From Candidatus Fraserbacteria bacterium (GTDB taxonomy: Bacteria; Bipolaricaulota; Bipolaricaulia; RBG-16-55-9): a DNA stretch of 18,833 nt. Of this stretch, positions 1 through 18,833 are shown piece by piece. Positions within the stretch are counted from its first letter, which is position 1. Each line of letters opens with the position of its first letter. A model generated the notes under the pieces. That model worked only from the letters and a program-made list of their open reading frames with translations. It ran no database searches and was not told the DNA's origin. The DNA lies in the NCBI GenBank assembly GCA_037442925.1, contig JBBIPG010000046.1, positions 1 to 18,833 of the forward strand, in the 5' to 3' direction. A program made the position numbers and the translations under genes.

Positions 1-81
1 CGTTTGAGCGAGCTGGGGCAGCGCAAGAGAGCCGTGCGCTGCCTGGAAGAGAGGAAGGAGTTGGAGTACATTCTTACGTGA
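1..81 (+). CDS. 3' end of an unidentified CDS truncated by the window edge
   Basis: Frame 1 is open from base 1 (RLSELGQRKRAVRCLEERKELEYILT) to TGA at 79-81 and converges on glyA. Too short to identify. Confidence 0.45.
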   Translation, partial: RLSELGQRKRAVRCLEERKELEYILT

Positions 82-131
82 GGCAACGAATCTCATTTCG
101 AGTACTTTCTTAGGTGAGGCAACAGGGGGTC

Positions 132-1379: not shown

Positions 1380-1401
1380 GGAACGTTCCGTGTGGTGTGG
1401 A

Positions 1402-2037: not shown

Positions 2038-2053
2038 GATTTCGGATCGGCCA

Positions 2054-2332
2054 TCACATTATACCCGTTGGAGTCTTCGACTGTCCAGAGCCCGTCCTAT
2101 CGTAGAGGCGCTTCCAGAGCTGAGCGAGAGTCGGGCTCTTGGCGAGAATTCCTGAGACGAAGCGCGTCCTCTCCAGTCGCGCAAAGACCCGACTCTTGCC
2201 CGGAAAATCCAGCAAGATGATCCCGGGGATGATGAGCGCCCAGCCCGACAAAATCGGCACAGGCAGTAAGATGATTCCCACAAGAATTAAGAGCCCTCCG
2301 GCTAGATTGCGAGCAATACTCATCAACAACAT
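2054..2332 (-). CDS. small hypothetical membrane protein (PGPGW-like helical hairpin), about 92 aa
   Basis: The ATG at 2332 overlaps the ispG stop (TGATG). Hydrophobic LAGGLLILVGIILLPVPILSGWALIIPGIILL is followed by a basic tail. The longer listed ORF to 2632 lies inside ispG. Confidence 0.75.
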   Translation of the reverse strand: MLLMSIARNLAGGLLILVGIILLPVPILSGWALIIPGIILLDFPGKSRVFARLERTRFVSGILAKSPTLAQLWKRLYDRTGSGQSKTPTGIM

Positions 2333-3429: not shown

Positions 3430-3863
3430 TAGAGCAGTCCTTTCAAGAGATCAATTCGTCGCACCACCCCGATGAGCACTCCCTGCTGATCCACCACGGG
3501 CAGCAGCTTGAATCCCTTCTGAATCATGAGCTCTGCCACGTAGAGATCGTCCTCGTCCTGGTTGACCTTGCCCACGGTGCGTACCATATATGCCCGCACG
3601 GGGTCGCCTGCCATCTCGCGCAGCTTCTTCGAGAACTGCTCGACCTCCGGCCAGAAGGACCCGCTTTGCAGAAGATCAAAATAACCGGGGAGTGCTGCTT
3701 GAATTACGTCTTTCTCGGAGATGAAGCCCACTACTCTCCGATCCTTATCGACGACAGGAAGCCCAGAGGATGCGCTTTGGTAGAGCATCCGTACAAAATC
3801 ACGAATGGTTGTATCTTCACGAACGGCCGTGAACTCGCGCGTCATAAACTCAGACGCTTTCAT
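3429..3863 (-). CDS. tandem CBS-domain protein
   Basis: Two CBS repeats (SGLPVVD..RVVGFISEKD; LLPVVD..GVLIGVVRRIDLL). Overlaps miaB (ATGA) and ispG (TAATG). Confidence 0.92.
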   Translation of the reverse strand: MKASEFMTREFTAVREDTTIRDFVRMLYQSASSGLPVVDKDRRVVGFISEKDVIQAALPGYFDLLQSGSFWPEVEQFSKKLREMAGDPVRAYMVRTVGKVNQDEDDLYVAELMIQKGFKLLPVVDQQGVLIGVVRRIDLLKGLL

Positions 3864-5203
3864 GAGATCACACGTCCGAACAGACCGGCCACACCCGCTT
3901 TCTCAATCGCTACGTGCACAAACGTCCCGGTCATTTGCGGCCCTGCGGAGAAGAGCACGGTCTTGTTGTCGCGGGTCTTGCCCAGATAGCGATCCGAACC
4001 CGTTCGGGCTTCCCCTTCGACCAGTACCTCGACCGTCTGACCCACCCGCGCTCGATTCTCTTCGTCTGTGATGCGTTTCTGTAGAGTGAGCAGGTGCTCC
4101 AGGCGACGCTGCTTCTCCTCCAGCGGGATAGCATCGGGATATTTATAGTAACTGATCGTGCCCGGACGCGGAGAATACCTGAAGATGAAAGCGCCGCCAA
4201 AGCGCGCCTTGCGAACAAGATCGACGGTCTCTAAGAAATCCTGCTCTGTTTCTGTGGGAAATCCCACGATGATATCGGTCGTGATGTTCACACCAGGCAC
4301 GCGGGCCTTGAGCGTACGAACCAGCTCCAAGAACTGCTCTTTGGTATAACCGCGGCGCATAGCGTCAAGAACCCGATCACTACCGGATTGCACGGCCATG
4401 TGCACGTGCTCGCAGACGTTGTTCTCCTCGCTCAATACATCGATCACATCCGGTGTGATGTCCTTGGGATGGGATGACGTGAAGCGAATTCGTGGGATAG
4501 CAATGCGTGTCAGCGCTCGTAGCAGATTTGCGAAGTTAATGTCGGGGTCATCCAGATCATTGCCGTAAGAGTCCACATTCTGACCGAGGAGCTGCACTTC
4601 TTTGTAGCCCTGCTCGGCCAGCTGGGTGACTTCTCGAATGATGTCGCCGGGAAGGCGGCTGCGTAGCAATCCCGTTGTGTAGGGTACAATGCAGAACGAA
4701 CAGAAATTGGAGCAGCCCTCTGTAATCGTGACTTTAGCTTGGAAGGAACTCTGGCGCAGAAACGGGAGATCTTCAATGCGGTCAGGAATTCTCGAGAGAG
4801 CCATCACGGGTGCACCGTTTCGATGTCCATTCTTTCCCTTCTCTTGGATCTCACGAATCAAACGGGGAATGTCTGTGATGTTGGAGCTGCCGAAGACGAA
4901 ATCGACGATTGGGCTGTAGTGGAAGATCTTTTTGCCGAGTGCCTGAGCCATGCAGCCGCCTATGCCTAAGAGCAAGTCGGGCTTCTTCTCTTTGAGAGCA
5001 CCAATGACACCAGCCTCGGAATAGACTTTATCTTCCGCCTTCTCGCGTACCATGCAAGTGTTAAATATGACGAGATCTGCATCTTCAGGGCGCTGAACTA
5101 GCTGATACCCCTCGTGCACGAGCAGGCCAGCGATGCCCTCGCTCTTGTGCTCGTTCATCTGGCAGCCCCAGGTGTGAATGTAGACGCGCTTTCTCGTTTC
5201 CAT
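3860..5203 (-). CDS. miaB: tRNA (N6-isopentenyl-A37)-C2 methylthiotransferase, radical SAM
   Basis: TWGCQMN, NTCMVRE and GGCMAQ (UPF0004 Cys), CSNFCSFC, LLGQNVDSY, RIRFTSSHP, YSPRPGT, C-terminal TRAM domain. Start is ATG 5203 or GTG 5209. Confidence 0.95.
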   Translation of the reverse strand: METRKRVYIHTWGCQMNEHKSEGIAGLLVHEGYQLVQRPEDADLVIFNTCMVREKAEDKVYSEAGVIGALKEKKPDLLLGIGGCMAQALGKKIFHYSPIVDFVFGSSNITDIPRLIREIQEKGKNGHRNGAPVMALSRIPDRIEDLPFLRQSSFQAKVTITEGCSNFCSFCIVPYTTGLLRSRLPGDIIREVTQLAEQGYKEVQLLGQNVDSYGNDLDDPDINFANLLRALTRIAIPRIRFTSSHPKDITPDVIDVLSEENNVCEHVHMAVQSGSDRVLDAMRRGYTKEQFLELVRTLKARVPGVNITTDIIVGFPTETEQDFLETVDLVRKARFGGAFIFRYSPRPGTISYYKYPDAIPLEEKQRRLEHLLTLQKRITDEENRARVGQTVEVLVEGEARTGSDRYLGKTRDNKTVLFSAGPQMTGTFVHVAIEKAGVAGLFGRVIS

Positions 5204-5226
5204 AGCCACTTTCCCAACCTTTGCGT

Positions 5227-5255
5227 ACTATAGCAGAGGGGTATAGGGCTGTCAA
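5227..5255 (-). promoter_or_regulatory. sigma70-type promoter of the miaB-glyA operon
   Basis: Minus strand reads TTGACA (5255-5250), 17 nt, TATAGT (5232-5227), with an extended -10 TG. Confidence 0.8.
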
Positions 5256-5265
5256 CCACAAGGCT

Positions 5266-5295
5266 TTGACCCTTTCCCTTCTCAAGAGGTAGAAT
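5266..5295 (+). promoter_or_regulatory. sigma70-type promoter of the acyl-CoA dehydrogenase gene
   Basis: TTGACC (5266-5271), 18 nt, TAGAAT (5290-5295). GAGGAGG Shine-Dalgarno precedes ATG 5329. Confidence 0.7.
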
Positions 5296-5328
5296 AAGAC
5301 AACGAAATCTGAAGATGAGGAGGCGGCT

Positions 5329-6477
5329 ATGGAATTTGAGCTGAGCGAAGAGCACAAGCTGCTGCGTAAGACGGCCAGAAAATTCGCCGAGGAAGTGATT
5401 CGTCCGGCGGCCGAAGAATACGATGAGCACGCGAAATACCCCCACGAGATCGTAGAGGAAGCGAAGAAGCTCGACTTCATCGCTCCTGCGATCCCGCAAG
5501 AGTACGGGGGAGCAGGGATGGATTTTCTGGCGCAGGCCATTGTGATTGAGGAGCTTACCCGAGGCGATGCGGGTATTGCCCAAGCCGTCACAGCGCGGAT
5601 CTTCGGAGCGGATATGCTGCTCGAATTTGGCACGGAGGAGCAGAAGAAGAAATTCCTTGTGCCCGTGGCCAAGGGTGATTGGGTGATGGGCTCAGCGATT
5701 ACTGAACCTGAGGCCGGATCGGACGTGGCAAGCATGAAGACGCGGGCGGAAAAGAGCGGCAATGAGTACGTCTTAAACGGGAGCAAGATGTTCATCACGA
5801 ACGGAAGTGTCGCCCACTTTCTGATCGTCTTCGCCCGCACGGACTTCAATCCCCCGGAGAAGCATATGGGGATCACGGCCTTCATCGTGGAGAAGGACCG
5901 CAAGGGCTACATCGCAGAGCCCTTAAAGAAGAAGCTGGGCATTCGCGCCTCAGATCTGGCTGAAATCACCCTCAAGGACGTCCGAGTCCCGGAGACGAAC
6001 ATCGTTGGTCAACTCGGCATGGGGTTCTATCACTTGATGCAATTCTTCAGCCGGGGTCGGACGGCGGTGGCCGCTCAGGCCGTGGGCATTGCTCAAGGGG
6101 CTTTCGATGAGGCGTTCCGGTATGCCCAAGAGCGCCAGCAGTTCGGTCGCCATATTGTAGACTTCCAGGCGATTCAATTTAAGCTTGCGGACATGGCCAC
6201 AGACATTGAAGCGGCTCGGCTCTTGACGTATCGAGCGGCATGGCAAATCTCTCTGGGAGGCAATCCAGCGAGGGAGGCCTCCATGGCGAAGCTATTCGCT
6301 TCGAGGGTTGCCCGTGAAGTGGCCAATGAGGCCTTGCAGATCCACGGTGGCTATGGCTTCATTAAAGAATACCCCGTTGAGCGTTTCTATCGTGATGCGA
6401 AGATCACGGAACTCTACGAAGGGACCAGTGAGATTCAGCGGCTGATCATCGTCCGATCGCTTCTGGGCAAGATCTAA
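5329..6477 (+). CDS. acyl-CoA dehydrogenase
   Basis: EYGGAG, AITEPEAGSDV, LNGSKMFITNG, KLGIRAS, R.QFG, ALQIHGGYG, YRDAKITELYEGTSEIQR. Confidence 0.97.
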   Translation: MEFELSEEHKLLRKTARKFAEEVIRPAAEEYDEHAKYPHEIVEEAKKLDFIAPAIPQEYGGAGMDFLAQAIVIEELTRGDAGIAQAVTARIFGADMLLEFGTEEQKKKFLVPVAKGDWVMGSAITEPEAGSDVASMKTRAEKSGNEYVLNGSKMFITNGSVAHFLIVFARTDFNPPEKHMGITAFIVEKDRKGYIAEPLKKKLGIRASDLAEITLKDVRVPETNIVGQLGMGFYHLMQFFSRGRTAVAAQAVGIAQGAFDEAFRYAQERQQFGRHIVDFQAIQFKLADMATDIEAARLLTYRAAWQISLGGNPAREASMAKLFASRVAREVANEALQIHGGYGFIKEYPVERFYRDAKITELYEGTSEIQRLIIVRSLLGKI

Positions 6478-6480
6478 ACC

Positions 6481-6504
6481 AGATCCCGCTGCGCGATGGG
6501 ATCT
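6481..6504 (+). terminator. possible stem-loop after the acyl-CoA dehydrogenase
   Basis: AGATCCC (6481-6487) pairs with GGGATCT (6498-6504). No U-tract follows. Confidence 0.3.
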
Positions 6505-6546
6505 CGATGAGCGTAAAGCGCTCGGGGAGCAAGAGGAAGCATTTCC

Positions 6547-6575
6547 TTGAACGCCTATGGCTCGGGGACTATAAT
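6547..6575 (+). promoter_or_regulatory. sigma70-type promoter of pyrG-lptC-lptB
   Basis: TTGAAC (6547-6552), 17 nt, TATAAT (6570-6575). Confidence 0.8.
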
Positions 6576-6600
6576 GCCCAGCCAGGGGCAAGAGGATTCC

Positions 6601-8214
6601 ATGAGCAAATTTTTATTTGTTACCGGAGGTGTGCTTTCGGGGCTCGGAAAGGGCATTAGCTCCGCTTCCATCGGACTCTTGCTTAAGGCCCGTGGGGTCC
6701 AAGTCACCGCCATCAAAATTGACCCCTACCTCAATTGCGATGCGGGCACGATGAACCCCTACCAGCACGGCGAGGTCTTTGTGCTGGACGACGGCGGTGA
6801 GGTAGATATGGACCTCGGTAGCTACGAGCGTTTTTTGGATGTCAGCCTTACCAGCGATCACAACATCACGACCGGCAAAGTCTACCAGCGCGTGATCGAA
6901 AAGGAGCGCCGAGGAGAGTATCTGGGCCAGACGGTCCAGATCATCCCGCATATCACCGATGAGATCAAGAGCTCCATCAAACGCGTGGCCGAGAAGAGCG
7001 ACGCCGAGGTGGTCATCGTTGAACTGGGCGGCACCGTGGGCGACATTGAAAGCATGCCCTTCCTGGAAGCTGCCCGCCAGATGCACCAGGAACTCGGTCA
7101 CGAAAACACGGTCTTCATTCACACCACTCTTGTTCCCGTAGTCGAAGCCGTCGGCGAGCAGAAGACGAAACCGACTCAGCACTCCGTAAAAGAACTCCGC
7201 GCCATTGGGATTCAGCCCGATGTCATCGTGGGGCGTAGCGACGAGCCCCTCAAAGAGAGCATCAAGCGCAAGATCGCGCTCTTCTGTGATGTGCCCCTTG
7301 AGGCCGTCATCAGTGCACCCGATGTGGAACTCATCTATCAAGTGCCCTTGGTCTTTGAAGAACAAGGCCTCACAGATTACCTCATGAATCGCCTGAGGTT
7401 GCGGACCAATCAGCAGGATCTTAGTGAATGGAAGAGGTTTCTCGAGAACGCCCTCCATCCCGAATTACACATCACTGTGGCTCTGGTGGGCAAGTATACG
7501 GACTTGAGGGATAGCTATGTGAGCTACGCTGAGGCGCTCACCCACGCCGCCGCCAGCCAGCGCGCCCGCGTGGACATCCAGTGGATCGAGGCCGATTTCT
7601 ATCGGGATGAACTGCTCGAGGGAGTCGATGGATTGATCGTCCCCGTCGGCTTTGGCCACCGTGGAGCGGAAGGGAAGATGCAGGCGATTCAGTATGCTCG
7701 CATGAATGACTTGCCTTTTCTGGGGATCTGCTACGGCTTCCAGCTGTCCGTCATCGAGTTCTGCCGAAACGTTCTGGGCTTGAAAGGTGCCAACAGCACG
7801 GAGTTTGAGGAACACCCGGCGCACCCGGTGATCTGTCTTATGCCCGAACAAGCGGGCATGAAAGAGATGGGTGCCACCATGCGCCTCGGAGCCCAGCCCG
7901 TAGTGATCGAGCGCGGCACGTTGGCTCACAGGCTCTACGGCACCACAGAGATCTCCGAGCGCCATCGCCATCGCTACGAAGTCAACCCTGAATATATCAA
8001 ACCCATCGAAGAGGCAGGATTCGTCTTTTCGGGAAAATCTCCGGATGGGCGACGGATGGAGATCGGAGAGATACCAGAACACCCGTTCTTCATCGCCTCC
8101 CAGTTCCACCCGGAATTTAGATCTCACCCTACAAAGCCACGACCCCTCTTTGCAGGGTTAGTGAAGGCATGTCTCGCTCGAACCCCCAGCGACGCGGCTT
8201 CGCCTTCGTCGTAA
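6601..8214 (+). CDS. pyrG: CTP synthase
   Basis: [44 protein letters not shown], GATase [21 protein letters not shown]. Start moved to ATG 6601 because the listed TTG start is the -35 box. Confidence 0.98.
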
Positions 8215-8738
8215 CAGCCCTTTGGGTTAGCGCTGTTCTGGGCCTGCTGTCCTCCTGTAGTAGCAGTTCCATCGAGGACGAACAGGCAGATCGTCAGTTA
8301 CCCGAGATCGAGCTTCAAGGTAACGAACTCACTCATTACAGCGAAGAGGGCAAGCCCGTCTGGGTCCTGCGCGCACGCTCGGTGGAGTACTTTGAAGAAG
8401 CCCAGCAAACTCACGCCAGAGGAGTAGAGGTGCGCTTTTGGGATCGAGATGGTGCGGACGCCCTGATCGTCCAGGCAGACCAGCTTACGTTCTATCACCG
8501 TTCGGGGGATCTTACGTTCAGCGGGAATCTGCGCGCACGGGATCCTGCGGGTTTACATTTCTCTACGGACGCGGCGTACTGGGAAGAGAAAGCACGCGTG
8601 CTCCGAAGCGACTCTCCCGTCCATGTCGAGCGCGAGGATCTCACACTGACGGGACAAGGCTTCGAGTATCGCCCGGATGAAGGAACGCTCACGATCCAAG
8701 ACGCTCATTTGAAGCTCATCCTCAAAGAGCAGCCATGA
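8169..8738 (+). CDS. lptC: LptC-like beta-jellyroll envelope protein, probable lipoprotein
   Basis: Signal peptide ends in lipobox-like LLSSC. Beta-strand pattern typical of LptC ([39 protein letters not shown]). ATGA-coupled to lptB. Confidence 0.75.
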
Positions 8739-9454
8739 CACTGAAAGCAGAAGGCTTGAGCAAGCGCTACGGCCGCCAACTCATTGTGGATGGAGTATCC
8801 CTCCAAGTCGAGAGCGGGCAAGTCGTGGGACTGCTGGGCCCCAACGGCGCGGGGAAGACGACCACTTTTCATTTGATCGTGGGACTGGCCGCGCCCGATG
8901 CCGGTCGAATCACCCTCGATGGGGAAGACATCACACGTGAGTCCTTCCACTGGAAAGCCCGCCAAGGGGTCAACTATCTTCCTCAGGAACCTTCGGTCTT
9001 CCGCAAGCTCTCTGTGCTAGAAAATCTGCTTGTGGTCTTAGAAAGACAGCATGCAAGCAGAATCGAATGTCAGAGATGTGCCGAAGAGTTGCTCGACAAA
9101 TTGGGCATTCTACAGCTGGCCTTACAGCGAGCAGATACGCTATCGGCCGGTGAGCGCCGTCGTGTGGAGATTGCCCGCGCACTTGCTTCCACTCCGCGCT
9201 TCTTGCTGCTCGATGAGCCCTTTACCGGGGTAGACCCCCTTTCCGTGGAGGGGCTGCAAGAGATCATTCAACAGCTCAAAGGAGAACGTATTGGCATCAT
9301 CGTGACCGATCACAACGTGCGTGAGACGTTGGCAGTGACTGATTATGTTTATCTCCTGCAGGGGGGACGGATCTTCTTGGAGGGAACTCCGCAAGAGATC
9401 CAGGATCACCCGCTAGCGAAAAAATTCTACTTGGGCGAGCGGTTTCAAATCTAA
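8735..9454 (+). CDS. lptB: LPS-export-type ABC transporter ATPase
   Basis: Walker A GPNGAGKTT, YLPQEPSVFRKLSV, signature LSAGERRRVEIARAL, LLDEPFTGVDP, TDHNVRETL, C-terminal YLGERF. Confidence 0.93.
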   Translation: MTLKAEGLSKRYGRQLIVDGVSLQVESGQVVGLLGPNGAGKTTTFHLIVGLAAPDAGRITLDGEDITRESFHWKARQGVNYLPQEPSVFRKLSVLENLLVVLERQHASRIECQRCAEELLDKLGILQLALQRADTLSAGERRRVEIARALASTPRFLLLDEPFTGVDPLSVEGLQEIIQQLKGERIGIIVTDHNVRETLAVTDYVYLLQGGRIFLEGTPQEIQDHPLAKKFYLGERFQI

Positions 9455-9467
9455 TTGAACCTCATCC

Positions 9468-9501
9468 TGCCTTCGGCACCCCTCTCCGAGTCGGAGAGGG
9501 G
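9468..9501. repeat. REP-like double hairpin / possible bidirectional terminator between convergent lptB and lgt
   Basis: TGCC-TTC-GGCA (9468-9478) is directly followed by the perfect 11-bp inverted repeat CCCCTCTCCGA-G-TCGGAGAGGGG (9479-9501). Confidence 0.7.
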
Positions 9502-9509
9502 CTAGGGGG

Positions 9510-10409
9510 TTATGCGTGCTCAGTTCCTGGCTTGAGTTCCTGCTGGTAGAGCCTTCCCCGGAGCATGAACCAGGCGAAGACAACAAAGATCAAGACGCTG
9601 ATGACCTGAGCGATGCGCAAGGATTCCAGGAACGTCCCGCCTCCTGTGACGCAGGCATTGCCACCGGCCAGACAGAGTGCATCGCCACGGAAGAACTCCA
9701 CCGTGAAGCGCAATACGGAATATAAGAGGGCATAGAGCGAAACCAAAAACCCGTCTTTGAATGGCTTGGTGCGCAGCCACCAGAGCAACCCAAAGATAAG
9801 AAGATCCCCGAACATCTCGTAGAGCATCGTGGGGTGGAGGTGCAGTTCGACGAATTCCCCTGCACCCGTGGGTCCCCTGCTGGCAGGCGAATCCGGAGGG
9901 AAGACGATTCCCCAGGGCAGATCTGTGGGTGTGCCGAAGGCATCTCCGTTCATGAAATTGCCGAAGCGCCCCAAAGCCTGTCCTAGGATGATCGCTGGAG
10001 CAATCACATCGGCGAACTTCCAGAAGGAGATCTTGACACCCCGCAAGAGTCCCTTCCAGGGCGTGACGAACGTAAAGAGATTCATGCCGCGGCTGAAGAG
10101 AAAGAGCGCGAGCGCTCCGCCGATCAACCCGCCGTGGATGGCGAGTCCCCCTTGCCAGATCTGATAGATCTCGTTGAGATGTCTTCCGTAATAGTCCCAA
10201 CGGAACGCAACGTAATAGAGCCGGGCGAAGATGATGGCAATGGGAATCGTGAGCAAGACGAAATCCAGAAGATCATCCAGAGTTAAATCGAGATGGCGCC
10301 TTCTGACTTCGCGGTGGGCGAGAATGATGCCGACGACGATGGCGACCACGTACATCAGGCCATACCAACGAATCGACCACGGCCCGATATTGACAATCAC
10401 AGGGCTCAT
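9510..10409 (-). CDS. lgt: prolipoprotein diacylglyceryl transferase
   Basis: IRWYGLMY, ARLYYV, IWQGGLAIHGGLIGG, GRFGNFMNG, LPWG, HPTMLYE, RFTVEFFR. Confidence 0.96.
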   Translation of the reverse strand: MSPVIVNIGPWSIRWYGLMYVVAIVVGIILAHREVRRRHLDLTLDDLLDFVLLTIPIAIIFARLYYVAFRWDYYGRHLNEIYQIWQGGLAIHGGLIGGALALFLFSRGMNLFTFVTPWKGLLRGVKISFWKFADVIAPAIILGQALGRFGNFMNGDAFGTPTDLPWGIVFPPDSPASRGPTGAGEFVELHLHPTMLYEMFGDLLIFGLLWWLRTKPFKDGFLVSLYALLYSVLRFTVEFFRGDALCLAGGNACVTGGGTFLESLRIAQVISVLIFVVFAWFMLRGRLYQQELKPGTEHA

Positions 10410-10438
10410 AGGTTTCGGCTCGTCCTCCTTAAATAAGC

Positions 10439-10468
10439 ATTGTAGACGATGGCCAAGAGATCTGTCAA
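10439..10468 (-). promoter_or_regulatory. sigma70-type promoter of lgt
   Basis: Minus strand reads TTGACA (10468-10463), 18 nt, TACAAT (10444-10439). SD AAGGAGG at 10430-10424. Confidence 0.75.
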
Positions 10469-10537
10469 CGGATACGGAACGGATGAACGGATCACACGGC
10501 CCACAGACATCTGCTAATCCGCTTCACATCCGTTGAC
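10464..10537. repeat. 74-bp low-complexity inverted-repeat element
   Basis: Perfect terminal IR GTCAACGGAT (10464-10473) / ATCCGTTGAC (10528-10537). The left arm has tandem ACGGA(T) units and the right arm has ATC[T/C]G units. Confidence 0.7.
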
Positions 10538-10546
10538 CGATACCCC

Positions 10547-10575
10547 TTGACTTTCGGAGTCGACTGTGCTAGATT
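10547..10575 (+). promoter_or_regulatory. sigma70-type promoter of the arsR-merA cluster
   Basis: TTGACT (10547-10552), 17 nt, TAGATT (10570-10575), with an extended -10 TG. Confidence 0.8.
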
Positions 10576-10580
10576 ATCAT

Positions 10581-10596
10581 TTGAATATTTTTTCAA
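10581..10596. promoter_or_regulatory. ArsR/SmtB-family operator
   Basis: Palindrome TTGAA-TATTTT-TTCAA over the expected transcription start. It contains the TGAA-N6-TTCA core of SmtB/CzrA-type boxes. Confidence 0.8.
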
Positions 10597-10612
10597 TTAA
10601 AGGACGGTGCTC

Positions 10613-10987
10613 ATGCTTCAACGAACTGTGCAGCATCTAGGCTTCAAGTGTCTCGGGCCAACGATCACGCCGGAGCGCATCTTGCGATTGCGCAAGGAAG
10701 TGCTTGAGAATGGAGAACTGCAAGCATTGCGAGGAATCTTGCACGCACTCAGCGGCCCCCTACGCTTAAAGATTTTATATCTGCTCCATCGCGAGCCCGA
10801 GTTATGTGTGTGTGATCTGGCCGATATTTTAGACGAGTCCGTCTCGGCCGTCTCCCATCAACTCCGCGTGCTCAGAAGATACGATCTGGTCAAGACCCGC
10901 CGCGATGCCAAGACGATCTTCTATTCGCTCAATGAGCCCGTCGTCCAGCGCTATTTGCGCTTAGAGAAGGAGGCTGTGCTTGTATGA
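10613..10987 (+). CDS. ArsR/SmtB-family metalloregulatory repressor
   Basis: ALSGPLRLKIL, alpha3 metal motif ELCVCDL, SAVSHQLRVLR, RRDAKTIFYSL, plus an N-terminal Cys. AAGGA lies 8 nt before ATG 10613 (alternative GTG 10607). Confidence 0.95.
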   Translation: MLQRTVQHLGFKCLGPTITPERILRLRKEVLENGELQALRGILHALSGPLRLKILYLLHREPELCVCDLADILDESVSAVSHQLRVLRRYDLVKTRRDAKTIFYSLNEPVVQRYLRLEKEAVLV

Positions 10988-12375
10988 ATCGCTATGATCT
11001 CATCGTGATCGGCGGAGGAGCGGCGGCCTTCGCGGCGGCCACGCGCGCTGCGGATTTGGACGCCCAGGTGTTGATGATCAACGATGGCTTACCCCTGGGA
11101 GGGACGTGCGTGAATGTGGGCTGCATCCCCAGCAAATTTCTCATAGAAGCTCTTAAAGAATATGAACACGCTCGAACGGGTCGCGACGACTGGTTCTTCT
11201 CAAAAGCCACCCTCGATTACGCAAAACTCAAAAAGGGCAAAGACGCGCTCGTCTCAGCGCTGCGCCAACGCAACTACTATGATGTGCTTGAAGCTTTGGG
11301 CAACGTCACGCTGATCGAGGGCCGTGCGCGCTTCGTTGCCCCCCACGAGGTGGAAGTCAACGGCGAGCGTTTCTCATCGGAGCGGATCATCATCGCCACG
11401 GGTGCTAGGACTCTCATCCCGCCGGTCCCCGGCCTGAAAGAGGCCGAGCCCTTGACGAACATCACGGCCCTTAAATTAGAAGAGCTGCCGCGCTCGATGG
11501 CCGTCATCGGCGGTGGGCCTTTGGGCTTAGAGTTCGCCCAGATCTTCCATCGGGCAGGAGCGGATGTCTCTACAGTGGAGCTGATGGGCCGCATTCTGCC
11601 TCAGTTCGAGCCCGAGATCTCGCAAGCCTTAGCGGAGATCTTGCAACGTGAGGGCATGAGAATTCATGTGGGACATCGCCTGGTGAAAGCGGAGGGCAAG
11701 TCTGGCAGGATTCGACTCTACGACTCCTGCGGTTGCATTACGGAAGTGGATCGGGTTTTAGCCGCCACCGGCATCCGTCCCAATTCCGACAATCTAGGGC
11801 TAGAAAAGATTGGAGTCAAGCTCGATCCCAAGGGCTTCATCCTCACGGACGAGCGCCAAGAGACTTCCGTGCCCGGAGTCTACGCCGCCGGAGACGTCAC
11901 GGGCAAGATGCCTCTTGAGACAGTTGCGGCCAAGCAGGGCTTCAACGCTGCGCACAACGCGCTCACCGGCGAAGCCAAGACTATCGACTATGATCTTGTC
12001 CCGCACGCCGTCTTCACGGACCCGCAGGTTGCTGCCGTGGGTTGGACGGAGGAGCGCGAAATGCAAGAGCTGGGGGAGTGCTGGTGTCGCACGCTCCCTC
12101 TCGAGGCAGTCCCTAAAGCCCACGCCGCGGGAGACACCCGCGGACTGGTCAAGCTCGTCGTTCATCCGAAAACCCGCAAAATCTTGGGCGCTCATGCCGT
12201 AGCTGTGAACGCCGCGGAGATCATTCATGTGCCGCTCTTAGCCATGCGAGCTGGCTTTACGATTGATGAGCTGATTGAGACCGTTCATGTCTTCCCAACA
12301 TATGCCGAGGCCTGGAAGATCTGTGCTCAGAGCTTTGAGCGCAATCTCAAGACTATGAGCTGTTGTGTCGTCTGA
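10984..12375 (+). CDS. merA: mercuric reductase, lacking the N-terminal NmerA domain
   Basis: FAD motif IGGGAAA, redox motif GGTCVNVGCIPSK, VYAAGDV, AVFTDPQVA and the diagnostic C-terminal pair AQSFERNLKTMSCCVV. Confidence 0.93.
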   Translation: MNRYDLIVIGGGAAAFAAATRAADLDAQVLMINDGLPLGGTCVNVGCIPSKFLIEALKEYEHARTGRDDWFFSKATLDYAKLKKGKDALVSALRQRNYYDVLEALGNVTLIEGRARFVAPHEVEVNGERFSSERIIIATGARTLIPPVPGLKEAEPLTNITALKLEELPRSMAVIGGGPLGLEFAQIFHRAGADVSTVELMGRILPQFEPEISQALAEILQREGMRIHVGHRLVKAEGKSGRIRLYDSCGCITEVDRVLAATGIRPNSDNLGLEKIGVKLDPKGFILTDERQETSVPGVYAAGDVTGKMPLETVAAKQGFNAAHNALTGEAKTIDYDLVPHAVFTDPQVAAVGWTEEREMQELGECWCRTLPLEAVPKAHAAGDTRGLVKLVVHPKTRKILGAHAVAVNAAEIIHVPLLAMRAGFTIDELIETVHVFPTYAEAWKICAQSFERNLKTMSCCVV

Positions 12376-12388
12376 AAGGGGGAGGTCT

Positions 12389-13024
12389 ATGAAGAAGCAA
12401 ACGACGAAGAATCTGAAGATTCTCTTGATCGGCGGGGTCGGGCTTTTAGGGCTGTTCGTGTTGGCCTTCTTCGCGCTTCCGGCGGTCTGTCCCTCGTGTG
12501 CGAGTTGGATCGGGAGACTCACGCCCAATGAGCCCTCTGCATCCCAAGGGCAGGCTCAACCCCTGAACGATACGACTTCCGTCGGGACCCGAGTGGGCGA
12601 GCGGGCACCCAATTTTGCACTGACCGACGTCGATGGAAATCGCTTTGAGCTGAGCGATCTTCAAGGCAATCCGATCATCGTGTACTTCTCAGCCAGCTGG
12701 TGCACTCCCTGCATCCCAGAGACTCAAGAGCTGGCGCGGCTGAAGGACCGCTACTCTGATCTTCAAGTTGTCTGGATCAGCGTCGACCCTCGTGGCGACT
12801 CCGTGCAGAGCCTGCGCAAGCATCGCCAGCGCTACGCCCGGCCCAGCTTCATGTACGCCCTCGACACCCCGACCAACGAGATCGCCAAGCAGTACCAAGT
12901 CTACGCCCTGGGGACGGAGTATCTTCTCGACCGCAATGGGGTGATTGCCTTCCGAGGAACTTTCTCGGTGGGGACGCAAACCTTTCAGCAGACGCTCGAG
13001 CGAGTGGCGAAAGAGCAGCCATGA
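12389..13024 (+). CDS. membrane-anchored TlpA/ResA-family thiol-disulfide oxidoreductase
   Basis: GGAGG SD before ATG 12389, N-terminal TM helix, VGERAPNFALTD, FSASWCTPC, ISVDP, LLDRNGVI. An extra CPSC follows the anchor. Confidence 0.9.
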   Translation: MKKQTTKNLKILLIGGVGLLGLFVLAFFALPAVCPSCASWIGRLTPNEPSASQGQAQPLNDTTSVGTRVGERAPNFALTDVDGNRFELSDLQGNPIIVYFSASWCTPCIPETQELARLKDRYSDLQVVWISVDPRGDSVQSLRKHRQRYARPSFMYALDTPTNEIAKQYQVYALGTEYLLDRNGVIAFRGTFSVGTQTFQQTLERVAKEQP

Positions 13025-13752
13025 ACCTCGAGATGCTGGCCATCGCGTTTGGTGCCGGTGTCGTGACCTTCTTCAATCCCTGCGGGTTCGCGCTCTTGCC
13101 TGCATATGTCTCGTATTTTTTGGGTCAGCGCAATAATCCCTGTGAGTCACAGATGGTTGGGAGCAACGCCTGGCTTAGCAGTGGCTGGCACGGCCTCATC
13201 TTAGGACTGACTGTCAGTGCCGGTTTCTTCACGGTCTTCGGGGCGCTGGGCTTGCTCTTCTCCCTGGTCGGAGGCACGCTCATGAGATTCCTCGGCCCTC
13301 AGTTGCCCTGGATTGCGGCAACTATCGGAGCCCTGCTCATTGTGCTGGGCCTGCTCATGTTCTTCGGCTCCTTCTCGCTTGGGCTCTCTCTGGAGGTGCT
13401 GGCGGCGCGGTTCATGGGCAACCCGGCTCCTCGTCAGGGGCTTCTGCCCTACTATCTCTATGGGATCGGCTACGCGGTGGGTTCGGTCGGCTGCACGTTG
13501 CCCGTGTTTCTCATCTGGGTCATTCAGCCCTTGCTGCAAGGCTTCGTAGGCGGGCTGTTCAATTTCCTCGCCTACGCCAGCGGCATGGCCCTGATGATGG
13601 TCGCCTTGTCACTGACTATGAGCCTGTCGAAAGAGCTCATTCAACAACGTCTTCGTCCGTTGATGCGATTTGTCCAGAAGGCGGCAGCCCTGGTGATGAT
13701 CGGAGCGGGCGCTTATCTGATCTACTACAACCTGATCTACGTGCGCATTTGA
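13021..13752 (+). CDS. ccdA: CcdA/DsbD-family transmembrane electron transporter
   Basis: AGVVTFFNPCGFALLPAY, GCTLP, AYASGM, about six hydrophobic segments. ATG overlaps the stop of the TlpA-like gene. Confidence 0.88.
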   Translation: MNLEMLAIAFGAGVVTFFNPCGFALLPAYVSYFLGQRNNPCESQMVGSNAWLSSGWHGLILGLTVSAGFFTVFGALGLLFSLVGGTLMRFLGPQLPWIAATIGALLIVLGLLMFFGSFSLGLSLEVLAARFMGNPAPRQGLLPYYLYGIGYAVGSVGCTLPVFLIWVIQPLLQGFVGGLFNFLAYASGMALMMVALSLTMSLSKELIQQRLRPLMRFVQKAAALVMIGAGAYLIYYNLIYVRI

Positions 13753-13770
13753 AAGGAGGCACAACGAACT

Positions 13771-14640
13771 ATGAGCGAGATGGTGTTTACGCTGGTGCTG
13801 CTGATCATCACTTTGGGCGCGATGGTTCTTATCGTTGCTCTGACAAGACCGAGGAGGAAGCCAACGGGACAGACAGGAATAATCTCCGGGGCAACATCCG
13901 CTGTGTCCAATGCGGAACTCTTCTGGACGCTGCTGGCCTTGGTCACGGGCAACCCCATCTTCATGCTGCTCCTTAGAGCCTCTAACAAAACGGGGCAACC
14001 CATGCCGCCCGCAGAAGACATGATGCAGATGATGATGAACATCGTCATGACCGTCCATCAGTTCATGGCTTGGTATCTGCCCTATGTGCTCATCCCCTCG
14101 CTGGTGATTCTGTTGCTGATCACGCTTTACAGCCGCACGCGCTACCCAAGGCTCTTCAATAGAATCATTGCCGGGCTGGGGGCCGGGGCGCTGGGCACGA
14201 TTGCCTTAGACATCTTCCGCTACCCGTTGGGCGTGCAGTTGGGCGGGCTTCCGGGTGATCTGCCCACCATGTTCGGCATGTTCATCACTGGAACGATGCC
14301 TGCTACGACGGCGGTGATTCTCATCGGCTATCTCTATCACTTCTTGAACGGGGCTGGCTTCGGGTTGACCTATACGCTCATAGCGGGCAAGGCCAAGTGG
14401 TATTGGGGATTGGTCTGGGCGCTCATCATCGAGATCCTGATGATGACTACGCCCCCGCTGCTGATTATGGGTGTGGGGCCATTCGGGATCAATCCACCCT
14501 GGTGGCCGAAGCTCTTCTTAACGAGCCTGATTGCCCATATCTCGTTAGGGATTGCGTTGGGGCTCTTAGCTGAGAGATTCGTGAAAGAGAAGGGAACGAT
14601 CTTTGCCATTTTGCGCTCGAGGCCGGAAAGCTCATCATGA
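13771..14640 (+). CDS. uncharacterised multi-pass membrane protein with a Met-rich segment
   Basis: AGGAGG SD, about seven hydrophobic segments, DMMQMMMNIVMTVH, and two His in hydrophobic helices (YLYHFLNG, LIAHISLG). No Cys. Confidence 0.8.
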   Translation: MSEMVFTLVLLIITLGAMVLIVALTRPRRKPTGQTGIISGATSAVSNAELFWTLLALVTGNPIFMLLLRASNKTGQPMPPAEDMMQMMMNIVMTVHQFMAWYLPYVLIPSLVILLLITLYSRTRYPRLFNRIIAGLGAGALGTIALDIFRYPLGVQLGGLPGDLPTMFGMFITGTMPATTAVILIGYLYHFLNGAGFGLTYTLIAGKAKWYWGLVWALIIEILMMTTPPLLIMGVGPFGINPPWWPKLFLTSLIAHISLGIALGLLAERFVKEKGTIFAILRSRPESSS

Positions 14641-14678
14641 AAGAAAAGCCTCACAACTGCGGCCCCCTTATCCCTCAA

Positions 14679-14719
14679 GGGCCTGCCCTTACGAGTCACC
14701 CCGTCCGTGGGGCAGGCCC
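14679..14719 (+). other. GC-rich intercistronic stem-loop
   Basis: GGGCCTGCCC (14679-14688) pairs with GGGCAGGCCC (14710-14719). No U-tract. Confidence 0.6.
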
Positions 14720-14781
14720 CCTCTCACCTCGGCTGTCTTGAGAGCAGATTTTATAACTTGAGAAGAAGGGAGGCAAATGTC

Positions 14782-15981
14782 GTGAAGCTTCGAATGCCAA
14801 TTTATGTAGTGCTGATCGCAGTCGGGCTGGTGGCTTTGCTCCTACTCATGAGGGCCAGCCCACCGGAAAACCTGCCATCGGGCGCCGTAAACGCGAAGCA
14901 CAAACAGACGAAAGTGGATTTTGTCTTCGCTCTCCCCCAGCCGAGCACGCTAGCGGGCATCGCTGCCTCTGCCGACGGGAAATATCTGGCGCTGGCGCGC
15001 AACTTCTGGTCTGAAAAAGAGCGAGCCAACCTGACCGAGCTCAGCTTGTTTGATTTAGAGACCGGCGAGGCCATGTGGTCAAAGGTGTACGCCAATCCCA
15101 ACTGCTGCTCCACGCCCATCGTGAAGGCCACTCCCGACGGTCAGCTGATCTTGGGGGCAGGCAAGCAGCTGCATCTCTATACCCAAGACGGCCAAGAGCT
15201 AAAGACTTATAGTTTTCAGGAAGACAGCGAATTCGCCTTCAGTGCCGACATAAGCCGTGACGGGAAATTCATCGCTGCAGCGTCCAGTCGACGGGCCTAT
15301 CTCTTCTCACAAGATGGGCAGCTTCTCTGGACATCTGACTCCAAGGACGTACCTTCGGTCGCGCTCTCCGGGGATGGGCAGTATCTGCTCGTGGCGACCT
15401 CACACGCTTTTCAGCTGTATAGAACTTCAGACCAGCAACTGATCCGGCGGGGGGAGCTGACGTACCAAGGCCCCATGGTGATTCCGGCCATCTCCCAGGA
15501 TGGGAGCAGTTTTGCGATTGCCGGAAACCCAATGTGGGGTCAGGCAGATCTGTCAGTCAACATCTTCCTGCAGCAGAGCTCCGAAGCGCGCTTGATCCCA
15601 CTCGGCAAGGTGAATGCCCCGAAGCTGAGCATAGACGAGCGAGGACAACTTGTTTTAGTCGAAGGGAATTTGGGATCTGAAGCGGCTCTTATCCCGACGG
15701 ACGACGGTCGCCCGCGGCGATTCTTCCCGCAGTCAGATTCCGTTCACATGGCTGTTGATGCAGTCAGCGATCGCCTGGCAATTACCCATGGGAGAGTCGT
15801 TGAAGTGTGTCGCCTCTCAGATGATCAGCCGCTCTGGCAAACGCCAATGCCAGGGGCAATTCTAGCTCTTTTACTGAGGGGAGACAGGATTATCGCTCTG
15901 GGGAACGAGCAAGGCAATTCCATATTGCCCAATCGCGTTTGGGCATGGAGCGTGAACATCACTGTTAACCAAGGAGGCTGA
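14782..15981 (+). CDS. membrane-anchored or exported WD40/PQQ-like beta-propeller protein
   Basis: GGGAGG SD 8 nt before GTG 14782, N-terminal hydrophobic helix, repeated blades (ASADGKYLAL, ATPDGQLILG, ISRDGKFIAA, LSGDGQYLLV, ISQDGSSFAI, IDERGQLVLV). Contains NPNCCS. Confidence 0.88.
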   Translation: MKLRMPIYVVLIAVGLVALLLLMRASPPENLPSGAVNAKHKQTKVDFVFALPQPSTLAGIAASADGKYLALARNFWSEKERANLTELSLFDLETGEAMWSKVYANPNCCSTPIVKATPDGQLILGAGKQLHLYTQDGQELKTYSFQEDSEFAFSADISRDGKFIAAASSRRAYLFSQDGQLLWTSDSKDVPSVALSGDGQYLLVATSHAFQLYRTSDQQLIRRGELTYQGPMVIPAISQDGSSFAIAGNPMWGQADLSVNIFLQQSSEARLIPLGKVNAPKLSIDERGQLVLVEGNLGSEAALIPTDDGRPRRFFPQSDSVHMAVDAVSDRLAITHGRVVEVCRLSDDQPLWQTPMPGAILALLLRGDRIIALGNEQGNSILPNRVWAWSVNITVNQGG

Positions 15982-15986
15982 GATGT

Positions 15987-16532
15987 ATGTGCTGTAGTCG
16001 TCGTGATCTCTTGAAGGGAGTTGCGGGCCTGGCTGTGGCCGGCGGACTGGCACTACGCCAAGTGGAGTCTGCATTAGCTCAGCCGGTCCAGGGAGCACCT
16101 GGCGCGCTGGTCCGGATCGTTTATCCCGGCTGGTCGCGTTGGGAGACGGCGTTGGGCTCGGCCGTCTACACGCCCGTCGCCAAAGACTTTCAAGTGAGTT
16201 TAGAGCTGCGCGGGCTCAGGGTATTCAATCCCTATTGAGCTATCGCGCAGGCGGTCAGCTTTAAGGCCACACAAGCACCCGCTGCCACCCAAGACTTTTC
16301 GAGCGATGGAAGCGGCAGCGCACGGCTCAGCTTGACGATTTCAAATAGCGACTTGATTGTCAGTGACATGAGCAAAGATCTGCCGGTCTATCAAGTGCAT
16401 ATTTTAATTCTGGACTTAGCGGAGTCGCTGAGCGACTTGCCCAGCGATAGGCGTCCACCAGCGGTGCTTGGATTGAGCAACGGCGTGCCCTTGGCCTGTG
16501 AGTACCCCTTGGGCTTCGCCCTGCAAAGCTAA
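15987..16532 (+). pseudogene. Tat-signal protein of 181 codons interrupted by one in-frame TGA at 16236-16238 (pseudogene, sequencing error or recoded UGA)
   Basis: AGGAGG SD, SRRDLLK twin-arginine motif, hydrophobic h-region and ALA cleavage site. The frame stays open after the TGA (AIAQAVSFKATQAP...) and joins listed ORF 16332-16532. Confidence 0.7.
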
Positions 16533-16541
16533 TGGAGAGTG

Positions 16542-17147
16542 ATGGCTATGCCCGGCTGTTGCAGCCTGCCGGTGAATCCTGAGGGTGAGTTGACGATCCC
16601 GCTGCCTGAGGAATTCGCCCAGAGGCTCCGGGAGCTTTATGGCTTGAAGGGAACTCCCAAGGATCTAGAGGAGCTGATAGCTCTAAGGCGCGAGTCGGGC
16701 CGGGTCTGGGTGCTTTCTTCGGCAGAGCTTTTAGTCTCGCCCACCCCAACGCGCCATGAAGTCCGCATGAAAGACGAGCGCCTCTATGTGCACTGTGCCC
16801 TCGACGCCCTGATGTACCCACTGATCACAGGGCAAGAGGCGGAGATTCAATCGCGCTGTCCCGTCTGTGATCACCTGATCGGTGCCGCCGTGCGCAAGGA
16901 AGAGATCGCCTCTTGGGCACCTGAGTCTGCCGTGCTCTGGCTGGGGGTCTCTTCCAAGGGCGGAGCTTGCTGCACAAGCGCATCAGATTTCAGCACCATT
17001 CGCGAATGTGTCTGCCCCTTCATCAATCTGTTTGACTCTGAAGGGCACCTGGAGGCTTGGCTGGCCAAGAACGAGGAGGTTTTAGGCGTAAAACTCTCGC
17101 TGCCCGAGGCGTTCACGTTGGCGAAGGGTCTATGCCCAAGGGGGTGA
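16542..17147 (+). CDS. merB: alkylmercury (organomercurial) lyase
   Basis: PTRHEV, catalytic Cys/Asp motif HCALDAL, SRCPVC, PESAVLW, second catalytic Cys in CPFINLF. Start could be 16539, 16542 or 16548. Confidence 0.88.
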   Translation: MAMPGCCSLPVNPEGELTIPLPEEFAQRLRELYGLKGTPKDLEELIALRRESGRVWVLSSAELLVSPTPTRHEVRMKDERLYVHCALDALMYPLITGQEAEIQSRCPVCDHLIGAAVRKEEIASWAPESAVLWLGVSSKGGACCTSASDFSTIRECVCPFINLFDSEGHLEAWLAKNEEVLGVKLSLPEAFTLAKGLCPRG

Positions 17148-17151
17148 ACGG

Positions 17152-17802
17152 ATGCCGATAAAGTGGGATGATTTCGGCCATCTCCCCTGCTGCCCCAAGC
17201 AGATCAATTATCAAGCGAGCGAGGTGATCTACTGCTCCGGCGACGCTGCGGATCAGATCTATCGCATCCATCGCGGCAAGGTGAAGCTCTCTTATCTCGA
17301 TGGGAGCGGCAGACGGTTGACCGTAGCCATCTTGGGTCCAGGGGAAGTCTTCGGGGAATCGGATCTATTACCTGGAGAGGAGCATCGCTTCTTCGCCGAG
17401 GCTTGGGAGGACGCCTGCATCTGTCCCATCGAGCTGAGGCAACTACGGGAACGCTGGCGTGAGGATTCGGAGCTGATCTTGGAAATGCTGCGGATCTTGG
17501 GGCAGCATGAGCACAAGCTGCTCAAGAAGCTCGTTCGCCTGCACTTCCAGAGTGTGCCACAGCGGATCGCCCGAGAGCTTTTAGAGTTGGCCCAGAAGTG
17601 GGGTGAACCCTCAGCAGAAGGCGTTGCAATTTACATCACTCACCAAGAGCTGGCCTATCTCATCGGTGCAGCTCGAGAGACGACTACGGCAGCGCTGGAC
17701 TGCCTGGCGCAAGAGGGGCTGTTGGATACCGGCCATGGCCACTCTCAGGGCAAGATCGTGCTCCTAGATCTTTTGGGATTGCGCGCGGTGGCCGAAGAAT
17801 GA
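17152..17802 (+). CDS. Crp/Fnr-family transcriptional regulator
   Basis: cNMP-type barrel (IY.SGD.ADQIYRIHRGKVKL, LGPGEVFGE) and HTH ITHQELAYLIGAARETTT. Six Cys including an N-terminal CC. Confidence 0.93.
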   Translation: MPIKWDDFGHLPCCPKQINYQASEVIYCSGDAADQIYRIHRGKVKLSYLDGSGRRLTVAILGPGEVFGESDLLPGEEHRFFAEAWEDACICPIELRQLRERWREDSELILEMLRILGQHEHKLLKKLVRLHFQSVPQRIARELLELAQKWGEPSAEGVAIYITHQELAYLIGAARETTTAALDCLAQEGLLDTGHGHSQGKIVLLDLLGLRAVAEE

Positions 17803-17866
17803 CGCCTCGTTCCTGCTAGGGAGATCCGCAGCAAGAAGACCCGGAGTCGCTGGACGAGCGTGTGAG

Positions 17867-17911
17867 CTGTAAGAAAGCTTACAGACTTCTTAGCGAGAAG
17901 GATGGTACGAT
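17867..17911 (+). promoter_or_regulatory. Crp/Fnr-type palindrome plus extended -10 (class II-like activated promoter)
   Basis: CTGTAAG-AAAG-CTTACAG (17867-17884) followed by TGgTACGAT (17903-17911). No good -35 hexamer. Confidence 0.65.
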
Positions 17912-18009
17912 GAAAAGTGCGCGGTGGATGAGAGAGGCGATCATCAGAGAAAGTGTCTTCCCCTCTCACCAGGCTGGTCCCATCTCTCTATGGAGAGGAG
18001 GTGAGCCCC

Positions 18010-18312
18010 ATGGCCAAGCCGAAGCTCGAGGAGTTCCTCCAGCTACAGACAGAGCTGGCCCGCGTGCAGGAGCGCTTTGCCACACTCGAAGTGGCCGCGG
18101 AGGACTGCTGCAAGGGCGCGCTCCGAGCTACAGAGCTGGCAGCGAAGGTCGAACCGACGGCTCTTGCCGAGCCGGAGTTGCGCACCCAAGCAGAAAACTT
18201 GCGCAAGGCTGCCCAACAGCTGAAGGGCTTCGAGCAGACCCTGCGCACTCAAATAAGAGAGCTGCGCGAGCCGCTCATACAACTGGAGGCCTTTGGCCTC
18301 AAGCGAGAGTAG
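18010..18312 (+). CDS. small helical/coiled-coil hypothetical protein (100 aa) with a central Cys-Cys
   Basis: Strong SD GAGGAGGTG before ATG 18010, Leu/Ala/Glu heptad-like pattern, AEDCCKG. Confidence 0.8.
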   Translation: MAKPKLEEFLQLQTELARVQERFATLEVAAEDCCKGALRATELAAKVEPTALAEPELRTQAENLRKAAQQLKGFEQTLRTQIRELREPLIQLEAFGLKRE

Positions 18313-18366
18313 CCCCATCCTATCGTGCCTCCTTTCCCTCGCGCCCTGCCTCCACATCACCGCTTG

Positions 18367-18404
18367 GCAGCCCCCGGCCCAGGCCCCCTGGAGTCGGGGG
18401 CTGC
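18367..18404 (+). other. long GC-rich intercistronic stem-loop
   Basis: GCAGCCCCCGGCCCAGG (18367-18383) pairs with CCTGG-A-GTCGGGGGCTGC (18387-18404): 17 bp with one G-U pair and one bulge. Confidence 0.7.
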
Positions 18405-18439
18405 GGCTATTCTCTGGAAGAGAAGGAGGATGATTCCTT

Positions 18440-18833
18440 ATGATGACCGATGAAGAGCGCCGCGAGAAGGAAGCCCTCAAGGAGCGCCTTCTGGCCCAGC
18501 GGCAAAAGATCGTCGCTCAACTTGAAGCTGAGCGCGGGACGAAAGTCATCACTCTCATCCACCGACGGGAACCATGGTCAGAAGACGATGACTCGATCAC
18601 AATTGAAGACAGTGAATTCGTGCTCATGGAGATCCATAAGACCCCTGAAGATAAACCCCTGGATCTCATCATCCACACGCCCGGGGGAATCATCCTCTCG
18701 GCGGAGATGATTGCCATGGCCCTCAAACACCACGAGGCGAAAGTGACGGCTATCGTCCCCTTCTATGCCCTGAGCGGTGGGACGCTGATCGCTCTGGCAG
18801 CGGATGAGATCTTGATGGAGAAATTTTCCATCT
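18440..18833 (+). CDS. ClpP-fold serine protease, SDH_sah-like (truncated at window end; absent from the ORF track)
   Basis: AGGAGG SD. My translation gives MMTDEERREKEALKERLLAQRQKIVAQLEAERGTKVITLIHR...ITIEDSE...LDLIIHTPGG...VPFYALSGGTLIALAADEILM. Confidence 0.9.
   Translation, partial: MMTDEERREKEALKERLLAQRQKIVAQLEAERGTKVITLIHRREPWSEDDDSITIEDSEFVLMEIHKTPEDKPLDLIIHTPGGIILSAEMIAMALKHHEAKVTAIVPFYALSGGTLIALAADEILMEKFSI

Follow-up and report, generated by a model that had tools for sequence, protein, structure and literature searches.

What could the genes lodged between merA and merB contribute to mercury resistance? The question is raised by contig JBBIPG010000046.1 of a Candidatus Fraserbacteria bacterium (GenBank assembly GCA_037442925.1), positions 1 to 18,833 of the forward strand; this entire contig (G000:C46), 18,833 nucleotides long, is the window analyzed here. 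The genome is 94% complete, and its closest relatives bear the titles Ca. Fraserbacteria or Bipolaricaulota. Positions 1–10409 contain housekeeping genes. The mer cluster begins divergently from lgt, has an unremarkable GC content, and comprises eleven plus-strand genes, the first starting at 10607 and the last reaching the end of the contig: arsR, merA, tlpA, a ccdA-like gene, a membrane-protein gene, a beta-propeller gene, a Tat-signal gene, merB, crp, a gene for a 100-residue helical protein, and an SDH-type protease gene. A first-pass annotation had described merA and merB as separated by TlpA, CcdA, membrane protein, propeller, and Tat genes, which is the order seen in the gene calls, and had proposed that these form an undescribed mercury capture and uptake route instead of merT and merP. 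We lean, by a modest degree, toward a different answer: that the cluster is a broad-spectrum mer island under ArsR control, in which an envelope module (CcdA, TlpA, and a propeller bearing vicinal cysteines) maintains thiols and buffers mercury and a histidine/methionine membrane protein acts as a helper, not as a MerT substitute. ArsR control, TlpA–CcdA, and the lack of merT and merP all have precedent. The novelty lies in the linkage to mer genes of the membrane protein, which is DUF6789-like, and of the propeller; neither association was found in the literature searched. These two genes likely encode unrecognized helpers of mercury resistance.

The connection to mercury appears in gene neighborhoods. 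We compared 184 genomes of the phylum, which are akin rather than independent and mostly incomplete; 13 possess a MerA above cut-off, and one more a MerA just below it. The membrane-protein gene occurs in 12 of the 184, in seven of them near merA. In the other five, it once abuts merB and a MerR-like gene (G014), once is divergent from a MerR-like gene, twice lies behind an orthologue of the cluster's arsR, and once has no marker. The propeller gene is present in five genomes, always within ~9 kb of merA, and in four of these five the membrane gene stands directly before it. Linkage of the accessory genes to mer genes is thus not rare. One relative, G006, carries the identical cluster in identical order; elsewhere the order is shuffled, with Crp, TauE-like, CsoR-like, P-type ATPase, and SDH genes. 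One 28-kb island (L041 and L118, on G024:C69) holds two MerA types (Phe605 and Tyr605), merT/merP-like genes, merB, two CcdA copies, the membrane gene, and the propeller.

Metagenomes extend the association beyond the phylum. Among the best 80 of 104 confirmed loci of the membrane gene, a mer marker lies beside it in 23; if only MerA or MerB is counted, the number is 15. Within the same best 80, the 23 loci of at least 8 kb include 15 with a mer marker (11 with MerA or MerB strictly), and collapse at 90% identity into 51 clusters leaves 18 and 11, respectively. The membrane gene accompanies both Tyr605- and Phe605-type MerA in distant lineages. In an archaeal case, a cluster named Nitrosarchaeum, the membrane protein, MerA, and TlpA have consecutive accessions, with the membrane gene first. 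Two plasmid matches were found: one lies behind merR in Stutzerimonas, the other behind a DUF302 gene without a mer gene. Neighbors were also scanned at 52 loci mostly without markers, covering 128 of 209 neighboring open reading frames, from 47 loci. There, a recurring uncharacterized two-gene module was seen, in which DUF302 stands directly upstream of the DUF6789-like gene (21 of the 47 loci, among L130–L203), often near ECF sigma and zf-HC2 genes.

The membrane protein (13771..14640, plus strand) has no cysteine and carries a methionine-rich loop. Across 32 aligned sequences, H190, H256, and M225 are invariant. PF20587 (DUF6789) matches 19 of the 32 homologues, with DUF1440/YagU and DUF2938 more distantly alike. 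The cluster's own protein does not match the family model; it is longer, with extra N-terminal helices and the methionine-rich loop. Atlas clusters carrying DUF6789 scored 0.92. The structure model is confident (pLDDT 85) but has no Foldseek match at E ≤ 0.001, and the best Z in the fold searches, 6.0, fell on a generic helical hairpin. Comparison with MerT, MerC, MerE, and MerF, which share with this protein a membrane location in mer loci, gave no significant match (the nearest, to MerF, reached 17.6 versus 24.3 bits over 25 residues in 1 of 32 members), and unlike them the protein has no cysteine pair. A MerT-like thiol relay is excluded because the protein lacks any cysteine; any transport would need histidine/methionine chemistry. 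Equally, the first-pass placement of the gene "instead of merT/merP" is weak because MerT-like genes co-occur with the membrane gene in 12 of the 23 mer-positive metagenome loci among the best 80 and because the gene often lies beside DUF302 without mer genes. In a literature search outside whose reach most subscription journals lay, no link between DUF6789 and mercury was found, the sole DUF6789 match being a nematode paper. Within the gene, nine letters at 13977–13990 differ from a contig of run X1, and the residues there also differ from a 94% identical protein (P0016), with the frame intact; these differences are possibly an assembly error. The X1 contig has two further gaps relative to the contig here, and X1 is possibly the source sample, so it is not independent.

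The propeller (14782..15981, plus strand) is a WD40/YVTN-type protein anchored by a single N-terminal hydrophobic helix. Its NPNCC loop, containing C108 and C109, is invariant in 14 of 14 aligned sequences. Only 15 homologues were found, all close. The fold search returned generic WD40/YVTN matches only, and the longer fused forms (703–2005 residues) are generic WD40 proteins only. Because the protein is exported and its Cys-Cys pair is invariant, it is a plausible client of CcdA–TlpA, and the first-pass expectation of exported cysteine pairs for that system fits this protein. In P0089, one database protein on two contigs, CcdA and the propeller are fused in frame, which weakly backs a link between the two. 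Vicinal cysteines are present in 6 of the 11 cluster proteins versus 88 of 1785 crudely called open reading frames of the genome; a post hoc binomial calculation on five of nine proteins, leaving out MerA and the TlpA, which has no such pair, gives 3e-5.

CcdA passes cytoplasmic electrons to TlpA-type proteins outside the membrane. The cluster's TlpA (12389..13024, plus strand; profile matches) is a membrane-anchored thioredoxin in which CPSC follows the anchor and WCTPC forms the active site; its start is most likely the ATG at 12389, not a codon within merA. The CcdA-like protein (13021..13752, plus strand) has six transmembrane segments and both catalytic-type cysteines (C21 and C158), with PF02683 below cut-off. 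The same pair exists in the staphylococcal mer operon of plasmid pI258 (NC_013319), ordered merR–TlpA–CcdA–merT–merA–merB. Specifically, TlpA is directly followed by CcdA in both, at 28% identity for TlpA (E 5e-14) and 34% over 226 residues for CcdA (E 3e-28). Unlike the cluster, pI258 has MerR, MerT, and an NmerA-bearing Tyr605 MerA; the cluster has ArsR and a MerA of the Phe605 type, along with genes for the membrane protein, propeller, Crp, and SDH, and MerT was not found. TlpA and CcdA also occur in many actinobacterial mer loci. Those under ArsR/SmtB (in Pseudonocardia, Rhodococcus ruber, and Mycobacterium plasmids, and the Streptomyces lividans type described in the available part of PMC3466566) share TlpA, CcdA, merA, and often merB with the cluster, and differ in a divergent two-operon layout and a small MerT-like gene. 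Their ArsR gives no tblastn match at 1e-4 to the cluster's CadC-like ArsR. Thus, the first-pass label "undescribed" is not supported, given also that ArsR-type mer repressors are known (same available part). Among 66 plasmid-record matches to the CcdA-like protein, 40 are staphylococcal; of 15 inspected, picked for taxonomic spread and not randomly, 11 adjoin merA or merB and four do not. The accessible portion of PMC12195606 (Table 4) shows database entries in which TlpA/CcdA-type proteins are already labeled "mercury transporter." No functional study of CcdA or TlpA in mer operons was found in the literature search, with the same limit on subscription journals.

MerB cleaves carbon–mercury bonds, and MerA reduces Hg(II). 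The cluster's MerA (10984..12375, plus strand; TIGR02053, 516 bits versus a cut-off of 454) lacks the NmerA domain. By alignment it retains the redox pair C42/C47 (207/212), the C-terminal vicinal pair C460/C461 (628/629), and Y98 as the equivalent of Tyr264, with phenylalanine (F437) at the position equivalent to 605. MerA is recognized, according to the part of PMC8261052 available, by both cysteine pairs, Tyr264, and tyrosine (bacterial) or phenylalanine (archaeal) at 605; the same part lists 46 bacterial Phe605 variants, none assayed, and its MerA table counts one Bipolaricaulota genome. MerB (16539..17147, plus strand) passes Pfam PF03243 and has C86, D89, C107, and C159, the aligned equivalents of Cys96, Asp99, Cys117, and Cys159. 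It falls under both NCBIfam equivalog cut-offs (77 versus 193 and 66 versus 200 bits) and has a divergent N-terminus with a CCSLP tag. Judged from these conserved residues, the two are probably a functional Hg(II) reductase and organomercurial lyase. The MerB start, MPGCCSLPV (16548–16565), resembles the MPSCCSLPV with which the NmerA-less MerAs of G030 and G027 begin (L027:10445–10475; L043:3003–3035). This common N-terminal tag might substitute for NmerA.

Control of the cluster is probably exerted by the first gene. ArsR (10607..10987, plus strand; NF033788 above cut-off) is a CadC-like ArsR/SmtB repressor, 32% identical to pI258 CadC over 96 residues, with cysteines at 15, 67, and 69 that orthologues retain. 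Its N-terminal Cys, its CxC in helix 3, and an inverted-repeat operator near the start place it in the alpha3N type as defined in the available text of PMC8790569. The repressor differs from the CadC group, whose palindromic operator likewise sits at the transcription start, in that it heads merA, whereas CadC-type repressors head a P-type ATPase gene. A sigma70-type promoter-like site, TTGACT-17-TAGATT (10547..10575, plus strand), lies divergent from lgt; similar −35/−10 spacing precedes several orthologous arsR genes, and the count of such sites, 6 versus 2.9 ± 1.7 in shuffles, is weak evidence by itself. Five base pairs downstream of its −10 is a putative ArsR/SmtB-type operator, TTGAA-N6-TTCAA (10581..10596, plus strand), found nowhere else in the genome; its shorter form TGAA-N6-TTCA is present at 37 places. 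The core TGA[A/G]-N6-TTCA is upstream of nine of nine close ArsR orthologues and absent before a more distant one (L129). Five of the eight orthologues in the phylum head merA clusters. ArsR-controlled mer genes are known in Sulfolobus and Streptomyces lividans, and such control was counted in 22 of 272 operons in the available part of PMC3466566. The island here is likely derepressed by mercury. Upstream of the promoter, a 33-nucleotide imperfect inverted repeat (76%; 10460–10541) overlaps the predicted lgt promoter.

The first-pass annotation placed all eleven genes after one promoter and operator. The co-directional genes, the promoter-like site, and the operator stand, but three long gaps interrupt the series (141 bp before the propeller gene, 207 bp before the helical-protein gene, and 127 bp before the SDH gene), each with predicted hairpins. 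Those at 14641–14781 and 18313–18439 are strong and GC-rich, with U tails absent.

From these components, the following mechanism can be proposed. The alpha3N-type ArsR, whose binding is predicted from its family, would occupy the palindrome beside the −10 and release it on contact with a thiophilic metal. MerB would then cleave carbon–mercury bonds, and MerA would reduce the Hg(II), activities predicted from their residues. At the membrane, CcdA would send cytoplasmic electrons to TlpA, which would reduce or unblock exported thiols, the propeller's C108 and C109 being candidate clients. As a result, the envelope would buffer mercury, and thiols that had been damaged would be repaired. The propeller, for its part, likely binds mercury on the outer side of the membrane. 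The most likely role of the membrane protein is to bind a metal or cofactor within the bilayer through H190, H256, and M225.

Could the membrane protein nonetheless be an importer? The hypothesis is that the reduced propeller collects mercury much as MerP does, and that the DUF6789-like protein, free of cysteine, imports mercury or organomercury and passes it to MerB and MerA. The canonical Tn21/Tn501-type layout, a MerR activator with merT and merP, was not found in the genome. Genome-wide, there was no MerT and no MerC match; MerE gave no match, its controls being equally blank; and the MerF search returned only 25 residues of the membrane protein itself, below threshold. To this extent, the first-pass statement that no merR, merT, merP, merC, or merF is recognizable is borne out, but two MerR-family matches exist, a strong one to a 303-residue protein unlike the MerR of mer operons and a weak one on contig C23. 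MerP is an HMA-domain protein; the cluster's exported protein with vicinal cysteines is the propeller. That no known mer transporter was found speaks for an importer, as do the invariant intramembrane histidines and methionine, the placement of the membrane gene directly before the propeller in four of five genomes, and its position immediately next to merA at several loci and to merB in G014. Transport by MerE, moreover, uses histidine besides cysteine (PMC5715351, in the part available). But the protein has no cysteine, MerT-like genes keep company with it in mer-positive loci, its family has many DUF302 contexts without mer genes, and, in the available part of PMC3466566, many ArsR-bearing mer operons are without any transporter. 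In addition, because only 15 close propeller homologues were found, the propeller cannot be the membrane family's general partner. We consider an importer unlikely.

A broader function must also be weighed, that of a general island against thiophilic metals and thiol stress, in which the accessory genes share a stress signal and travel with merA and merB, with nothing specific to mercury. Several findings weigh against our preferred mer-island reading and in this direction. The commonest neighbor of the membrane gene in non-mer loci is DUF302 (the 21 of 47 loci above), and HxlR, ECF-sigma, and copper-protein genes are further non-mer neighbors, so the membrane family is broader than mer. Three of the eight ArsR orthologues have no adjoining merA, lying instead by a P-type ATPase gene (G003), by an MFS transporter gene (G011), or where the contig ends (G004). 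The shuffled gene orders in relatives and the loss of the Tat gene while the island persists fit a general island as well. Other findings weigh against the mer-island reading from the side of the envelope module. A deletion variant or an assembly artifact could account for the P0089 fusion. About 54 CcdA-like copies exist in the phylum, only seven within 10 kb of merA, and nine of 30 CcdA-like loci compared adjoin lgt. A quick tree places the cluster's CcdA among Bipolaricaulota copies, apart from the mer copies of staphylococci and actinobacteria, so that the cluster and pI258 proteins are not sisters. Nevertheless, the propeller (five of five genomes) and the Tat gene (three of three) occur in the phylum only with merA, the membrane gene goes with either MerA type in distant lineages, and vicinal cysteines are enriched in the cluster; a general stress island is, in our judgment, doubtful. 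In one more explanation, TlpA–CcdA is an ancestral housekeeping pair of the cytochrome c maturation type beside lgt, into which arsR–merA inserted. In relatives without mer genes, a ccdA-like gene is indeed divergent from lgt at the site where the cluster starts. However, the cluster's CcdA shares 66% identity with the G030 copy, which is mer-linked and falls in the same clade (starred at 99), and only ~47% with lgt-side copies; the quick tree suggests that it lies apart from the lgt-side clade; and a second, separate CcdA/TlpA locus exists in the genome on contig C61. Insertion into a housekeeping pair is therefore very improbable. In the quick tree, the mer label requires at least five changes on starred branches, that is, repeated recruitment or loss. 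Such a pattern is in keeping with repeated recruitment, and hence suggests that CcdA is functionally suited to mer loci.

The Tat-signal gene (15987..16532, plus strand; 181 codons) is intact in G006 and G009 and, in the phylum, is present in three genomes, all within merA clusters. The first-pass annotation counted a Tat protein in the cluster; the gene is indeed there, between propeller and merB, but a premature TGA at 16236–16238 breaks the protein here. Because divergence past the TGA is biased toward third positions (12/9/29 by codon position), the TGA is a recent nonsense change. Selenocysteine at this site was considered and rejected: a relative has CGG (Arg), and there is no SelA and no tRNA-Sec above cut-off. 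An assembly error was considered as another origin of the TGA; the X1 contig is identical at this place, with the same caveat about its independence. An Atlas search with the Tat protein gave nothing at ≥0.9.

Beyond merB lie a Crp/Fnr-family regulator with an N-terminal vicinal cysteine pair (17152..17802, plus strand; profile matches), the 100-residue helical protein with a central pair (18010..18312, plus strand), and the 5′ half of an SDH-type Clp-fold protease gene (18440..18833, plus strand). Crp genes near merA are also found in G006, G009, G024, and G043; the helical protein occurs only here and in G006 (2 of 184 genomes). The cluster apparently runs on into contig C67, which holds the remainder of the SDH gene, then a TauE-like gene, then a second SDH gene. 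SDH-type proteases with a cysteine-rich tail (CEFGLCKRPC; 18440–18833 and L221:7518–9664) and TauE-like genes recur by merA or the ArsR orthologue in L037, L041, L043, and L070, and the genome has four further SDH paralogues. Also on C67, a 1295-residue MutS gene (L221:2788–6675) seems, judged by eye, to hold an intein immediately past the P-loop. In L029, L031, and L032, from relatives without mer genes, a longer CcdA-like gene is directly divergent from lgt, where the mer island sits here.

Here, we have focused on a mer island whose accessory genes differ from those conventionally counted. Its CadC-like repressor and well-defined operator are usable for tests of mercury sensing, and its MerA offers a bacterial Phe605 enzyme from a class none of whose listed members has been assayed. 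The locus also gives a testable role to the TlpA–CcdA pair, which is unexplained in classical mer operons. A less probable reading is that the DUF6789-like protein represents a new class of cysteine-free, histidine/methionine mercury transporter in bacteria and archaea, fed in Bipolaricaulota by a CcdA/TlpA-reduced propeller that replaces MerP. If so, the long-unassigned TlpA–CcdA genes of gram-positive mer operons would also be explained. Because mer inventories count only merR, merT, merP, merC, merE, merF, merD, merG, merH, merA, and merB, loci that are of the ArsR type, archaeal, or deep-branching appear "minimal." The locus described here suggests that a set of accessory genes has been missed: those of a propeller with an exported pair of vicinal cysteines and of a DUF6789-like family linked to merA in bacteria and archaea alike.

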